From Antedon mediterranea (lineage: Eukaryota; Animalia; Echinodermata), in the NCBI RefSeq assembly GCF_964355755.1, contig NC_092680.1, positions 5,828,001-5,892,000 of the forward strand: 64,000 nucleotides of DNA. Direction: 5' to 3'. The notes beneath the pieces are model-generated. The model was given only the letters and a program-made list of their open reading frames with translations, ran no database searches and was not told the origin of the DNA. Both the position numbers and the translations under genes were made by a program. Positions 13,201-21,499 of this stretch are shown piece by piece; the first letter of the stretch is position 1; each line of letters begins with the position of its first letter.

Positions 13201-14609
13201 CTATTTAGGGAAATTTTCCACTGAGTCAAATGAACAAGGGGAAATATTGTTTTAACACTACAGCCAACCCAATTCAGAACACATACCTATTTAAATAGGA
13301 AACTTTTTGAGTTCAAAAGGTGTCATCTCTCTTTTGTTGCTACTTGTTTTCTGGATGAATGTAGCTGCTGTTGTAATTCAGTACTAAGGGCAAGAGTCTT
13401 GTGATTTGCCATCCACTTTTTTAATAATAATAATAATGCGCTGCTCTCACAGCATTTATTAGGTCCAATAAAAACATATCATCGGAAATTCGTTTTTTGT
13501 ACACTATTTAAAAGAACAATAAATATATAGGAACATTATACACACTATACAAAATTGCACAAAAACGAGATACACAGCAAAACAGAACCAAATTATCTAG
13601 TAACGGTGTTGTTGAAAACTGTAATTGACTTAGGGATAAATGATTTGGAATAACGGGTTGTTCGCACACGGTGGGATTGAAGTCGGATTAATGATGTCAT
13701 TTATATAAAAATGTTTAACCAGATTTTATTTTGAGACTGAATTGACGGATTCTTATCCTTTTATTTTAAGATAAAGTCATCGAAAAGATTCTAGATGTTG
13801 CAATGAATTTATTTAGTAAGTTAGTGGAAATCTCAAAACCGTTTCATCTGACACTCATAAGTGTTTGCTTCACCAAATTAGAAGATCGTTCGAAGAAACC
13901 GTCAATAACTACATATTTTAAGAAATCTACAGACGGACCGGCTGCCAACCAGAAAATTGATATCTTAAAGACGCGATCAAAGAAACCTTCAATTGATACA
14001 TATTTCAAGAAGCCCATGCAGCAACATGATCCTGGCAAACATAGCAGAACATTTGAAATAAAAGACATTCAGAAGGTTAACAGTTTCTTTCAAAAAACTG
14101 AAGAAAACACAATGAAAAAGCAAAAGGTAAACCATAGCTCATCTGACAATTCTTCAAAAATCTCGGAGAACAGAAAACTGATTTCTGAACTCTTCTCTGG
14201 GCAGTCAATATCAAGTAAAGAACAAATTGTAGATAATTCTATACTTGACCTAGAATATAATTCCAAGAAAGCAATATTGGATGACAAAGAAATTAAATAT
14301 GTCGACACTAGCAAAACTTCAGAATGTCCATCATCTTCGAAATTTGAAAATAAAGATCAAGTCCAACATACTGCACGGCCAACAAAGATGGAAGATGAAA
14401 CAAACAATTCTCTTGACCTCGAATCAACACCTTCTGATTTCAATAATGATTTACCACCAAATGTTGATGTATCAGTTTTCAGCCAGTTACCCACTTCTGT
14501 ACAGAAAGAACTAATTGAGAACTGGAAACGAGAAAAGACAAAATTGCAAGTGAAACCAAGATCAAAGGAAGTAAAGAAAAGCATAAAGGAGTTCTTTACT
14601 ACAAAATAG
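10270..14609 (+). CDS. POLI: DNA polymerase iota (Y-family translesion polymerase)
   Basis: 9 exons: 10270-10447, 10682-10783, 11123-11287, 11694-11834, 12030-12272, 12356-12534, 12841-12932, 13020-13150, 13771-14609. Motifs IIHIDMDCFYAQVEM, KPLGIQQKNIVVTCNY, GEDLTKYREMSYKV, VERLGFDENFID, NKLLSKLVAGTHKPNQQT, and C-terminal UBM LPPNVDVSVFSQLPTSVQKEL. Confidence 0.95.
10856..11097. mobile_element. Kolobok-like MITE (TTAA target), copy 1
   Basis: ttaa|agatgtattgtccccc ... gggggacaatttatct|ttaa; a related copy lies at 58823-59182. Confidence 0.7.
13480..13740 (-). mobile_element. LINE (L2/Crack-like) 3' fragment in a POLI intron
   Basis: Minus frame reads LIRLQSHRVRTTRYSKSFIPKSITVFNN, typical of a LINE ORF2 C-terminus. 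Confidence 0.5.
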
Positions 14610-14930: not shown

Positions 14931-15456
14931 ACAGTAGTTGCTAGTGATGCATCTGGTTCTGTAGCTTTGAAAGTGTCCATTTCATCATGAGTATGTTGTC
15001 CAGAGTCCCAACAAGTTTAGCAGTATCCAGGCACCCATTGACTCACATAGAATGTATCAGTGTATACTAATACTGTACACGTACTAACCCACCATGATTA
15101 GGAGCAGTTTGTAGTATCCAACAATTTTGTTTTGTTCCCGTTACCACAATCTCCCCCTTGTAAAATTACATTCTTCAACGTACCTACTAGGATTTCTTAC
15201 TACAGTACTCTACCTGACCTAACCTCGTGTTCCAACACCTGCCCTCAACGCCCACTCTTGTTCCCGTTACCACACAGTTCCCGCTCAAATTATCAATGCA
15301 ATGTTTTTCTACTGTTTTCAGTCAATATGAAACAATTCCAGGATTTCACATTAGAATGTATCAGTGTTCATTACATTATGTACAGCTTTTCCTATTCATT
15401 TACTGTAATTATGGCAGCAGTTCTATTTTAACAGTTCAAAGTTCAAGTTTCACTGT

Positions 15457-18400
15457 TCATTCTTTAAACTTCCATTCCTGGCGACACATTGGACATTGTT
15501 GATGTACTTGCTGGGATTGTAGCCACTTTAAAATACAGTGCATATGAAATACATGCGAACACTGTCCCCAAACTGAAATAAACAAAAATTGTTATAACAA
15601 AATTATTAATATACAGTGTGTATAAATACAGTAGATATCCAACTTTTGGAAACTTTTTTGGCAAAATATATTTTACAGTTCACTTTTGCTAACTCCCATC
15701 AATGGGACATTCCTATTAAGGTGACAATTTGTTCAGTCCCTTGTTATATAAGTTCCCTGTATTACCATCATTTTAATGCATTGTTGGTATGCATGCTTTG
15801 TTTTTTTCTCTATATTATAGAGGACCAACTTTGGTAAGAGAGTTTGGAATATCATGACAGTAGAACTCCTCCTGGGGAAACACAACTACACAAACAAATA
15901 TATAACTAACTGCACCTTTATTGGCCAAACTAAAAATAACATGTAATGCAGACACAAGTATACATAACAATTATTATATAATTGTGTGAATAAATAACAC
16001 AGTGATATGTATTAGATGGTTCTAATTTAAAGAAGAGAAGTTGGTTCAACATTTGTCAGTACATTCAAACACATTATATATTTGTACATAGTTTAAATAA
16101 CGGTAAATAAATAAAAAGTGTTTAGAAAAATAAGTGCTGATCTTTCTTTTTGATATACAGTAATAAGTAACCATTATTTGGATCATAATTCTATAAAAAA
16201 AGATGGAAGAAATTTACTTTTACAAAACCAGGAGTTATCACTTACAAGTAAAGTATTAATATTATATTTGATATCGCAGAAATATGATAACTCTTAATCG
16301 CAAAGTTTGCCTTATGCAATATAAAAAGCACCATTTGAAGTTTTGAAGATTTTCCACTCACACGAAAATTTAAAAAACTAAAAACTATTTGTAATGTATA
16401 AATATATGTATAAACAAATTAAGAAATTTACCAATAAATATTACTTTCATTCAATGACACGACACAGAAGACTCATTAGTTAGCAATACAGTACAGATTA
16501 TTGTAAATACTCATTAAAAACAGTATAAAAATGTGTGATATCATAATAAAAGCACCTATATTCACAACGATTGCAAAACTGTAAAATAATAGCATGTGAT
16601 TCTAAATTTGTGCATTTTACAATTAATATATATTTTTTTTAATTAAATAGTAACAATTTAAAGTACAGTAACTGATTTAAGATTTAAGCCATGATTGAAT
16701 CATGGCTAATTGCCTCTGGTTATTTGGAATCAGTTTTATACTATGTTTAAACATGATGAGTGCATTCACTGTGTGAACTTGCCATTGTTTCTGGCTTTCA
16801 CACCAGTTCCCACCCTTTCCACTTATATTCCAAGTTTCCTGGACTTTCTGCATTCTCACTCCTGAGGACTATCAAAGCATATTGAACGAAACGTTGAGAA
16901 ACTCAACAGTTCTTTTTAGAACTAATACACGTGGTGTACCGCAAACTTTATATGTTTCATACTGTAGAGGGCTATAATATAACCTTTGAAACATAGTGAA
17001 CTAAATTATGCTGAATAAACGCATTTTGATTTTAGAACTTTGGTGAGCACATTTAATAGGTATTCTTTTTCAACATTCACTATATATTCAAACTAGAAAA
17101 ACTGTAAAAACATGAATAGCACACATTCAGTAAAAAGCCAATTCTTGAATCAGCATACAATTTCACACAATGATTTAGCGGCGGCAATGAGCGCATACTG
17201 GCTAAACCTAGGGGGCCCAGAACTCGAGAGCATAAGCAGCCCTAAAGCGTGGTTCTCACCAGCGACGCAACACAAGGACGTAATACAACGCAAGTGAATT
17301 GACCAATCACAAGCGATGGCTTATTCGCTTGTAATTGCTGTCTATAACTTCGCTTGTCATTGGTTGAAACGCTTGCGTTGCGTTTACGTCCTTGCGCTAC
17401 GTTCTAGTGGGAACCAAGCTTTAAGCTCCTTAGAAATAATAAACCCTTTGCCCTGTATGTTATGCCACTGAAATTGAGTTACATAATACCAACTTATACA
17501 AATTTGGGAATGTATTCAACGCAAAACTGAGTATCATAGCAACACAGGCATGCCAGACGGTGTACTGACAACATACCGAACCATTTACAGATTAAGAAGA
17601 ATACATCACTGATCACAAAATTACTATATAAAAACTGAATTAGTAAACAATCTATATATTGGTGTTGAAAATTCAACGCAAGTCTTTAGAGCAGTGAGAA
17701 ATAACGGCAGATTCAACTTTAAGAAAGGAGTCATATTGTTCATTTCCAATATGATCCAAATAACGCCTGACAGTTGCAAGAGCAATCAAAGCTTCTGTTG
17801 AAGTTGGAACGTCTGAGGGTTCGATTCTTCTTTGCTTTCTCCTCTGTGGAGGCCTTTGTGCCCTTGGCTCAACAAAGTCATTGTTTACATTTTGTGCTGG
17901 GGTGCTTGAAACACAAACATAGTCACCCTGGCCAGTTGATGTACCTGGTTGAAACTCTGAAGAAGACCCTTTCAACTGATAAGCAGACTTTTTGGAAACT
18001 TGTTTTCTCTTTGATAAATTACTGTTACCATAGTAGTCATTGAGTCCATCAGAGGCATCACTTTCTAAAATATCTTCACCAGAAGCAGGTTCAAAATGGA
18101 CACCATCATAATCTGTAAATTGGCGAGGTATGATTTGCCTTTTGCTCCTTCTAAATTGTTGGATTTCTCTGCTAGACTCTCCGTCTGAGTTGGCAACAAG
18201 ATCAACAAACTCATCATCTTCATCATGCAAGGGACCATCTACCGGTATTGAAGGATCATTATTTGTATTGTTCATTTCATCTTCACCAATCACAACTGGA
18301 GCAATGTTGTCATCTATGGAAACATAGCTAGAAAACTCATCAATTGTCATTCCTTCTGGAGGTGGATCATCTTCATTGGTTGTCCACATATTGTCTTCTG

Positions 18401-21279
18401 CACTATTCTTTAAGCCAGCTTTGGCAAAAGCTTCCTGAATAATCTGTTGATTTACATTCTTCCAGGCATTATGAATCATATGTGCAGAATCTAGAAGATC
18501 AACATCATATGCAATAGCTTGACTAATAGCTTTTGAAAATATATCCCCTTCACTCTTAGCAGACAGTAAGATCCTTTCTACAATTTGCCTCCTATAGCAT
18601 TTCTTAAACAGAGATGTGATTCCATGATCAAGCGGCTGTACAACATTCTTTGATTGTGGAAGTATTACCAAATTAATATTCGTCAGTGAAACATTGACAG
18701 AAGATGCAGCAGTGAGCTGAACAATCAACGCAACTTTTCTATTCTCTTTTGATAATGCTTCATCAAATCTCTGCACCCATTCGGTAAAGATACCAGGAGA
18801 CATACATGTGTCTTCGCTACTAACATAAGTAACTGGTATATTATTAATACCTTTAAAACAATCACGTGACCCTTCATCCTGTCCAATAACCCACACTTCT
18901 GATTTGTCAGATCCAGTCATATTAGTTGCCATAACAACTGATATAATATCCCATGGGTTCTTTTCAGTCATTGTGGCTTCATACTTGAAGCCAGAAAGTT
19001 TCTGTGGTAAGGCACGATAGTACAGTGCTACTGTGCCAATGTTATAAATATCATTCGTGTCATATTTTAATAACAATGATCGCATTGTGGCTGTATGTTT
19101 AGCAGTGGAAGTGTCTTTTGTTGTGGAATTGGAATACATTCCTTGTGCTAGATCTTGATAATGTGTTATTGGAGAGATGTTGGTATTTGTATCATTCATT
19201 AATGACTGATTGGATTGGTGACTTGAAGCATCAGCATTGTTATACTCTAGTGTGTCGTCCAATGGCATTTTCATTAGGTTAACTTTATTAACTGTTGCCC
19301 AATTCTGTAACCAAAACCGAGAAGGTTTAAAATCAAGCCTGCCAATGTTTTTCGCGATTACACAAGCTTGTTTCATCAACGTATCTCTAGAAGGAGGCTT
19401 TTTCTCACATGATGTGTCGTTTATCCAAGCAAGAAGAGCTTCTTCGACATCCTGGTACCTCCTGCGTCGGATTTTCTTCTGGTCAGGATTTTTGTTATTT
19501 TTCCATGCTGCTAATAATGTCTTTTTCTGTTTTGCAATGCGAAAAATTTGTAACTTAGAAATTCCAAATAGATCTGCGATTTCTTTGGCTGAACGATTGT
19601 GCTCCAATGCTTCAATAATCTCAAGCTTCTGCTTAACTGTCAAAATCTTTCTTCTTTTAACAACCACCAATCCTTGGAAATGGCTCTTTTTTCTAGTTGC
19701 CATCACTATATAACTTCTTTATTGGTTCTTTCTCGTCATTCTACAGAACTGTAAAGACAAAATGTGAATTAACTTGTACTTGCACAGCAAATAACTTCCA
19801 TAAGATTAAGATCAATCTTCCATAAAGTTTTTTTCATTTCAAATCAGCTTGATGGTTCTTTAGTTTTACGTCTATACATGCGAGATCTATGAAGTTACTG
19901 TGTACCTGTATCAATGTATTGTATTTCTTTGAGACACCTTTTAGTTAGTGAATGAATGAATTGACAAGAACTGAGATTGAAATTCTGTATGTAATAATTT
20001 AAATAAAAAATCCAACCAAACAACATAATTCATCTAATTACTTTCACAAATTGTAGAACTTTTTACCTAATAATCAAGTCAAGTCAATTTCCTTTGGATT
20101 TCTGTTGTAAAATTTACTAATTTCACAGTTAGTAGTACAGACTCAATCGAGAGAATGACATTGATGTTGCACAATCAAAGTTCTACCAATGATCTGGGCT
20201 TAAACATTTATAGCACAATGAAGGTTTCAAGTTCATGGTTAGTCCATGGTGTTTTTGATTACCTACTATAGTTAGGATAAAGACATGCTTAGTGTATTCT
20301 AAAAAAATGTCCTCATTGCCGTGCACTATTTTAATGGTAGTCATCACCCCACTCTTACAATGGTAGAGTCCATTATTGGTTATTGTCCCAGGTGGTTAAT
20401 GTCCTTGAAGTTTACTTTTTCCCTTCCTACTCCTGCGTTCCATAACGCTTCCTATAATTCAGAATATACCTACCTAGGGGACAATCATCTCCTGGCATCT
20501 TACAGTCCGGACAGCATCCATCAAATGGCATTCGACAGATACCACAGTTGTCATCGTTTGCCACCCATCGCCATGTTGCAACTCCTGTCCAACTGACATA
20601 AAAAAATAAATTTTGATAACATAAATTTATATACAAATATTTTTTTAATGCAATCATAGAGATATTATAGATTTCTATGGTGCAAATACATATGCCTACC
20701 AGATAAATCAATACAAAACTGACTTTTCTGATTGACAGTTCAAAAACTCATTTGTATCTATTCAACTCTCTGAATCATGAATGAATGCCATTCTCATCCT
20801 CAAATTACTGCTATAATTTTATCAAATCAACATATTTATTTCTAATATTTTTAAATTGAAAATTATAAATAAAATGTTATTTTAAATTTATAAAATAATT
20901 ATTTAAAATAGACTTACCCTTTAATTAGAGTAAACATCAGAAAACAAAACACAAGTTCAAAGTTGGGAGACATATGAAAGAGAAAAAACAACTCATTAAC
21001 CTCAAATAGGCCTAGTCATAATAAATACTACAGTATACGGCTAGGCCTCTATTAGCATAGAACACTGGACTCACAAGTGCCCCTCCGCTCCGCTCCGCCA
21101 GTGAAAAGTGGTGAAGCAAAAACAATAAAATCACATTCATGAAAGTCTCTAGGCCTAGCTCAACTTTTTATGACTGCTTGTTGCATATCATTTCGATTGT
21201 TATACTAAGATTTATTGGATTCTATTGAACAAAGAATTTCTTAGCTAAGCATACACTAACTTTTTACAGTAACTTTCAT
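15457..21279 (-). CDS. ANAPC11: Anaphase-promoting complex subunit 11 (RING-H2), 84 aa
   Basis: Exons 21279-21261 (19 nt), 20918 (1 nt), 20592-20474 (119 nt) and 15572-15457 (116 nt) total 255 nt. Protein: [84 protein letters not shown]. Confidence 0.95.
17246..17420. mobile_element. MITE family B (agcgtggttcccactag...ctagtgggaaccaagct), TAA-flanked, Harbinger-like
   Basis: TIRs visible; near-identical copies at 62039-62217 and 62360-62540, and a variant at 24355-24492. Confidence 0.75.
17673..19703 (-). CDS. Tigger/pogo transposase-derived protein (CENP-B/TIGD-like), intronless, nested in the last ANAPC11 intron
   Basis: 676-aa intact ORF. It has an HTH_psq/CENP-B N-terminus ([13 protein letters not shown]...[15 protein letters not shown]), a second HTH ([12 protein letters not shown]...[11 protein letters not shown]), a DDE_1-like domain ([25 protein letters not shown]...FAKAG) and C-terminal [17 protein letters not shown]. 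No TIRs seen. Confidence 0.9.
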   Translation of the reverse strand: MATRKKSHFQGLVVVKRRKILTVKQKLEIIEALEHNRSAKEIADLFGISKLQIFRIAKQKKTLLAAWKNNKNPDQKKIRRRRYQDVEEALLAWINDTSCEKKPPSRDTLMKQACVIAKNIGRLDFKPSRFWLQNWATVNKVNLMKMPLDDTLEYNNADASSHQSNQSLMNDTNTNISPITHYQDLAQGMYSNSTTKDTSTAKHTATMRSLLLKYDTNDIYNIGTVALYYRALPQKLSGFKYEATMTEKNPWDIISVVMATNMTGSDKSEVWVIGQDEGSRDCFKGINNIPVTYVSSEDTCMSPGIFTEWVQRFDEALSKENRKVALIVQLTAASSVNVSLTNINLVILPQSKNVVQPLDHGITSLFKKCYRRQIVERILLSAKSEGDIFSKAISQAIAYDVDLLDSAHMIHNAWKNVNQQIIQEAFAKAGLKNSAEDNMWTTNEDDPPPEGMTIDEFSSYVSIDDNIAPVVIGEDEMNNTNNDPSIPVDGPLHDEDDEFVDLVANSDGESSREIQQFRRSKRQIIPRQFTDYDGVHFEPASGEDILESDASDGLNDYYGNSNLSKRKQVSKKSAYQLKGSSSEFQPGTSTGQGDYVCVSSTPAQNVNNDFVEPRAQRPPQRRKQRRIEPSDVPTSTEALIALATVRRYLDHIGNEQYDSFLKVESAVISHCSKDLR
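20918..20918 (-). CDS. ANAPC11: Predicted single-nucleotide microexon (G) of ANAPC11
   Basis: Minus-strand context ttgtgttttgttttctgatgtttactctaattaaAG|G|GTAAGT. It supplies the one base needed to join phase-1 exon 1 to the phase-2 next exon (A+G+T = Ser7). Confidence 0.8.
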
Positions 21280-21499
21280 TCCCAAGAAGTGTACAAAATA
21301 ACACAATTTCTACAAGAAAATCTTGAAAATGAACACTTCACGCACAGGAGGAGAGTGCCTAAAACCAAAGAACTTATAACACAAGAATCTCCTGTTCTTC
21401 AATTTGCATTCAAAACACAGTATCGGAAGTACAGGGTTAAAAGGTCAAACTGGGCGACGCCATTTCACAGCATGGAGCAGCGCCCCCTCCAAACTAGGA

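Follow-up and report, generated by a model that had tools for sequence, protein, structure and literature searches.

The gene for ANAPC11, a subunit of the APC/C, in the feather star Antedon mediterranea contains, in all probability, a coding exon of a single nucleotide. We place this exon, a G, at position 20918 of the window (the whole 64-kb stretch of DNA analyzed), and put the probability that it is real and is the source of the extra G in crinoid ANAPC11 RNA at about 0.92. It is likely orthologous to the one-base exon of plant APC11.

A sequence-only reading of the window had proposed the gene model, and all its exon and intron coordinates held on the minus strand. Computed from the window, exons of 19, 1, 119, and 116 nt, with introns of 342 and 325 nt around the one-base exon, give a coding sequence of 255 nt and a product of 84 aa (Table 1), in which a single codon, Ser7 (A+G+T), comes from three exons. 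Exon 1 ends in phase 1 and exon 3 starts in phase 2, so that direct splicing over the 668-nt gap between them would frameshift the gene. As marks of ANAPC11 we took a zf-ANAPC11 RING-H2 domain, a length of about 84 aa, and a Trp at residue 8, all of which the predicted protein has. The Pfam profile zf-ANAPC11 scored above its cut-off for both halves of the domain (E values of 7.7e-13 for exon 3 and 8.2e-17 for the last exon), the translation of exon 3, which starts one base 5' of Trp8, aligns to residues 8 to 46 of the solved 84-aa APC11, and the predicted crinoid protein is identical to that of Priapulus at 77 of 84 positions.

Table 1. Features of the ANAPC11 gene in the window (positions are those of the window)
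Feature	Position	Strand	Length, basis, and remarks
Exon 1, coding part (codons 1 to 6 and first base of codon 7)	21261..21279	-	19 nt, ends in phase 1; RNA contigs
Intron 1, GT..AG	20919..21260	-	342 nt; removal deduced from the net 667-nt skip
Candidate branch region: T-rich tract, then CTGAT (20940-20936), ca. 20 nt upstream of the microexon acceptor	20936..20954	-	Sequence; putative
Single-nucleotide exon, G, middle base of Ser7	20918..20918	-	AG-G-GTAAGT, RNA joints, comparative support
Intron 2, donor GTAAGT, acceptor CAG	20593..20917	-	325 nt; sequence
Exon 3, from codon 7 (third base) to codon 47 (first base); first half of RING-H2	20474..20592	-	119 nt, starts in phase 2; Pfam and spliced joints
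Intron 3, GT..AG, with a Tigger-like ORF inside	15573..20473	-	4,901 nt; joint 15572-20474 in X5 and X9
Last exon, coding part including stop	15457..15572	-	116 nt; Pfam

Exon 1 reaches upstream to at least 21333, judging from contigs that cover 21258-21300 (run X5) and 21258-21333 (run X9). Intron 1 has the donor GTTAGT (U2-like, weaker than that of the microexon) and an A-rich acceptor, AAG. The earlier reading had pointed to AAG acceptors elsewhere in the window, in RPL17 (41782), POLI (13770), and TAF1C (27028); the sequence is present at each, as a putative acceptor. POLI (13770-14609, plus strand) and ANAPC11 (15300-15457, minus strand) are convergent, with 3' ends less than 900 nt apart, and a POLI exon here is identical over 79/79 aa to A. 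mediterranea and 80% identical to Anneissia. Inside intron 3, on the same strand as ANAPC11, lies a 676-aa Tigger/CENP-B-like ORF (17673-19703; Pfam CENP-B_N, HTH_Tnp_Tc5, and DDE_1), preceded at 19749 by a sequence that resembles an acceptor. The ORF is covered by RNA contigs from both species, and the one from X9 stops at 19748, so the ORF may share the promoter and first exons of ANAPC11. Short high-copy repeats occur at about 16770-16950, at 17286-17423, and above 21365, the second being a MITE-like element with inverted ends (opposite-strand joints).

Four of the nine sequencing runs that cover the region were examined as contigs (X2, X5, X6, and X9), none of them recorded as RNA. X5 (organism A, second study) and X9 (organism B, third study) join 15572 to 20474 over a GT-AG intron, a joint missing from X2 and X6, and were judged to be RNA for this reason. 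Contigs of both also contain a joint 20590-21258 that skips 667 nt rather than 668, with no other letters, which is absent in the DNA runs X2 and X6. The mRNA of two species, from two studies, has exactly one extra G between exon 1 and exon 3. The sequence-only reading had predicted this base and had named three outcomes that would speak against the exon, none of which occurred. The base is G in both X5 and X9. A homopolymer error in the assembly was ruled out by a DNA contig of X2 (possibly the source sample) that matches 21149-21340 without gaps and has five T, not six, in the run at 21261-21265, together with the 667-nt skip in the RNA. Use of the GA acceptor further downstream was likewise ruled out, because the RNA joint skips 667 nt. 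Four letters fit on either side of the joint in X5 and X9, so its position is ambiguous and the joint does not by itself place the G uniquely. No splicing intermediates of the crinoid gene were seen in the contigs, a kind of data that is not evidence of their absence.

Within the 668-nt gap there are four AG-N-GT sites, and only that at 20918 has a consensus donor; as in plants, one base stands between AG and GT within the apparent first coding intron. AG.GTAAGT was present in 1.3% of 5,000 dinucleotide shuffles of the gap and occurs five times over both strands of the window (other spacers gave similar numbers, one to five each), and at these chance rates the motif by itself is modest evidence. 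Longer microexons of 3n+1 nt were considered and rejected: the gap holds 29 candidates (four of them of 1 nt), and among the 1-nt ones only 20918 matches the single G that the RNA keeps. Two branch-like motifs had been noted upstream of the site. One of them, ctgat, has no listed change in the DNA of organism B and remains a candidate, while ctaat (20928-20924) is disrupted there and was dropped. The stretch 20887-20922 is also free of listed changes in organism B (five indel entries fall outside the listing), but the two species are so close, with only a few percent of difference over the whole intron, that this conservation is weak evidence.

As the G is ambiguous in the crinoid alone, we scanned metagenome contigs with an alignment of exon 3, obtaining 265 matches, of which 197 were confirmed and the best 80 analyzed. 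Among these best 80 of 197 loci, 19 had exon 1 and a phase-2 acceptor, 14 a phase-2 acceptor with exon 1 not found, 18 exon 1 and a phase-1 acceptor, and 3 a phase-1 acceptor without exon 1; 19 were without an intron in codon 7 (mRNAs or intronless), 2 were of other kinds, and 5 remained unscored. In 18 of the 19 loci with the phase clash (exon 1 of 19 nt followed by an acceptor in phase 2), an AG-N-GT with a strong donor lies between the exons, and the nineteenth, L044, has AG-G-GTAC between introns of 37 and 35 nt. Counted by independent groups, the window included, the site was found at spacer 1 in 9 of 10, against a shuffle expectation of 0.98, and at spacers 0 and 2 to 6 in 0 to 2 of 10. 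For this count the donor pattern had been extended to include GTATG once the plant group L071 was known; GTRAG alone gives 8 of 10 groups. By their nearest named proteins, L001 and L004 are mollusc-like, L021, L024, and L026 coral-like, L025 animal-like, and L055, L064, L071, and L075 land-plant-like; the mollusc-like, coral-like, and plant-like genes all have the site in the codon where the window has it. In the animal loci a pyrimidine run lies 25 to 45 nt upstream of the microexon acceptor, followed mostly by a TGA-containing motif and often by an A-rich linker. One gap, in L025 (399-770), holds several strong-donor AG-N-GT sites (two with A, one with G). L044 (1311-1685) is a complete APC11 of a eukaryote with introns of 35 to 41 nt and a 37/1/35 layout at codon 7, and is arranged head-to-head with an intronless glycosyltransferase-like ORF.

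Contigs that are themselves spliced bear more directly on the base. In the moss-like spliced contig L048, 95 to 99% identical to the genomic L055 and L061, exon 1 and exon 3 are separated by an A. The genomic match L061 gives intron ends GT..AG, from which an A is not obtainable, so the base must be supplied by an internal microexon, AG-A-GTAAG, which was read in the relatives. In the plant-like gene, this mRNA/genome pair makes the middle base of codon 7 the 1-nt exon, as in the window; codon and phase are the same in L055, L061, L064, L071, L075, and the spliced L048, so that the position, which the sequence-only reading had put forward as perhaps homologous, does agree with that in plants. 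Two coral-like contigs, L032 (compared with L021; many of its introns are spliced) and L020 (compared with L024), keep intron 1 and have lost intron 2, the cut in both falling precisely at the donor that follows the single A of the 1-nt exon. The Orbicella model P0121 begins in the same intron-1/A/exon-3 frame. The fully spliced coral mRNA or protein, with a predicted Gln7, was not found among the 291 proteins fetched. L032 (933-2084) also runs past the APC11 stop into several spliced exons and may be a transcript of two genes; a listing gives Drosophila lemming as dicistronic (PMC3372440, in part).

The extra G could in principle be the first base of a donor or the last base of an acceptor, if the crinoid removed one noncanonical intron of 667 nt (TT..AG or GT..CA) and the internal AG-G-GTAAGT were incidental. 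Such cuts give the same mRNA, the joint fitting four letters either way, and no intermediate was seen in the crinoid contigs. They would, however, call for a very rare type of intron, neither end of which resembles a U12 donor, and would leave unexplained the internal site in 18 of 19 phase-clash loci; nor could they account for the A of the moss-like L048 or for the use of the internal donor in the coral-like contigs. We regard both the single intron and this origin of the G as extremely improbable in the crinoid, and on the sequences of the other species a single noncanonical intron is excluded.

The one-base exon and both its flanking introns were likely inherited from the common ancestor of animals and plants. 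Intron 3 also lies at the same place in the animal, plant, and L044 genes (after a 119-nt exon), and three intron positions common to the animal-like, plant-like, and L044 genes favor common ancestry over convergence. The type of intron 1 appears to differ between the two kingdoms. U12-type introns have the donor RTATCCT and a branch motif CCTTRAY. In each of the four plant-like groups that have exon 1 (L055, L064, L071, and L075), intron 1 starts with GTATCC and has CCTTGAY or TCTTGAC 23 to 45 nt before the acceptor, and it looks, from these motifs, to be U12-type, while that of animals (donors GTAAGT, GTGAGT, or GTTAGT) looks U2-type. The crinoid intron, with GTTAGT, has no CCTTRAY-like branch motif. 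In Arabidopsis APC11 a putative branch point lies 44 nt upstream (PMC4674806, in part). The available parts of the plant papers PMC4674806 and PMC8831610 carry no remark on a U12-like intron 1 in APC11, and "U12" is not mentioned in the main text of PMC8831610.

Shared ancestry requires that intron 1 was converted, its donor type differing between plants and animals. This difference, and a patchy distribution (up to 19 of the best 80 loci are without a codon-7 intron, though some of these are mRNAs), would suit an independent origin of the one-base exons in animals and plants, through introns gained separately at neighboring bases of codon 7. We consider this improbable, given the three positions shared exactly by animals, plants, and the eukaryote L044. 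Moreover, conversion of U12 to U2 introns and loss of introns are common events. Seventeen of the best 80 of 197 loci, mostly with arthropod nearest matches, have the phase-1 intron only; in these arthropod-like loci, which lack intron 2, the base has merged with exon 3. As a tentative scenario, to which we give somewhat less than even weight, the exon is still present in crinoids, molluscs, corals, and land plants, as well as in one or more protists with tiny introns; the upstream intron became U2-type in animals, the downstream one disappeared in arthropods, and the output of the APC/C catalytic subunit continues to be gated by how slowly the upstream intron is removed.

The introns on either side of a one-base exon presumably cannot both be bound at once and would be removed in turn. 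The microexon donor is strong, the donor (GTTAGT) and acceptor (AAG) of intron 1 are weaker, and the intermediates keep intron 1, so intron 2 is likely to go first, the microexon donor pairing with the acceptor of exon 3. Its removal would leave the base at the head of an ordinary exon of 120 nt, after which intron 1 could be removed; the late removal of intron 1 would be a possible control point. This order draws on the two coral-like contigs L020 and L032. Detention of the upstream intron is also the common order for plant microexons (PMC8831610, in part). The opposite order, in which the upstream intron goes first, much as at a recursive splice site offset by one nucleotide, and exon 1 plus G rebuilds a donor AAG/GTAAGT for the splice to exon 3, seems unlikely to us. 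The rebuilt donor would match the full consensus, intron 3 is gone but intron 2 still present in contig L022 (its intron 1 is outside the view), and both orders are found in 49 of 69 plant microexons (PMC8831610, in part); against this, the two informative intermediates from animals have lost intron 2 with intron 1 still in place, and the crinoid donor and acceptor of intron 1 are the weaker pair.

In our reading the exon would be constitutive, its only role being the frame of an essential APC/C subunit. The earlier proposal that it acts as a regulated on/off switch, with skipping leading to a frameshift and nonsense-mediated decay, found no support and seems very improbable. Skipping in the crinoid would give a 45-aa frameshifted product with the RING domain destroyed, and in 5 of 9 other loci tested the stop would come early in exon 3, as a switch would have it. 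Yet only the included joint is listed in X5 and X9, and the 668-nt joint of the skipped form in neither (contigs can drop rare forms). The stop of that form ends at nt 138 and the last junction follows nt 138, so that it lies at the junction rather than, as would be expected of a poison exon, more than 55 nt upstream of it, and decay is not predicted by the 55-nt rule quoted in PMC13247117 (in part). The plant exon is constitutive (PMC4674806, in part).

The closest known case is exon A333 of Arabidopsis APC11 with its land-plant orthologues (PMC4674806 and PMC8831610, both in part): like the crinoid exon, it is a frame-essential one-base coding exon between GT-AG introns, in a gene with an 84-aa product, and was missed by annotation. 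Its position in Arabidopsis was suggested only by a 19-nt forward primer (PMC4674806, in part). The crinoid exon differs in its host, an animal (echinoderm), in its base (G and not A), and in its U2-like upstream donor, as opposed to GTATCC with CCTTGAY; the plant exon was proven by mutation (PMC4674806, in part), whereas ours is deduced from sequence and RNA contigs. A phase-1/phase-2 clash solved by AG-N-GT is also found with the one-nucleotide exons of Fusarium CYP621A (PMC12940212, in part), where the base is again G with the same ambiguity, and of plant VPS55 (PMC8831610, in part), but these genes are unrelated to APC11 and each is described there within one kingdom. PMC12940212 (2026; in part) calls the Fusarium case the second example. 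Among animals, placozoan mitochondrial cox1 has a one-base exon that was found via splicing intermediates, although it lies between group I introns (PMC5436844, in part) and the crinoid exon is spliceosomal. Neural microexons of animals are also tiny internal exons that depend on intronic signals, but their inclusion is alternative and their length in most cases a multiple of 3 nt (PMC8831610 and PMC4674806, in part), while the crinoid exon is frame-essential and apparently constitutive. In the literature searched, in which subscription papers are thinly covered, we found no animal APC11 microexon, no nuclear one-base exon in animals, and nothing relevant on APC11 with U12 introns.

The claim that annotation misses the exon was confirmed: 14 of the 15 named cnidarian APC11 models fetched have a noncanonical N-terminus, and hemichordate and Acropora models have one extra residue at the N-terminal site. 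Left unrecognized, a one-base exon leads to wrong N-termini in many invertebrate ANAPC11 gene models. What is new here are the coral-like intermediates, which suggest that the downstream intron is the first to leave, the U12-like plant and U2-like animal intron 1, and the arthropod-like loci without intron 2. The data suggest that this exon, as small as an exon can be, is of great age and that gene prediction programs regularly overlook it. With the feather-star exon, animals would have a one-base exon that is both nuclear and spliceosomal, and what was supposed to be a plant oddity would extend, with RNA support, to a deuterostome. Two introns one base apart, kept for more than 1 billion years in an essential gene, would form a natural system for testing how introns are defined, in what order they are spliced, and how U12 introns turn into U2 introns.
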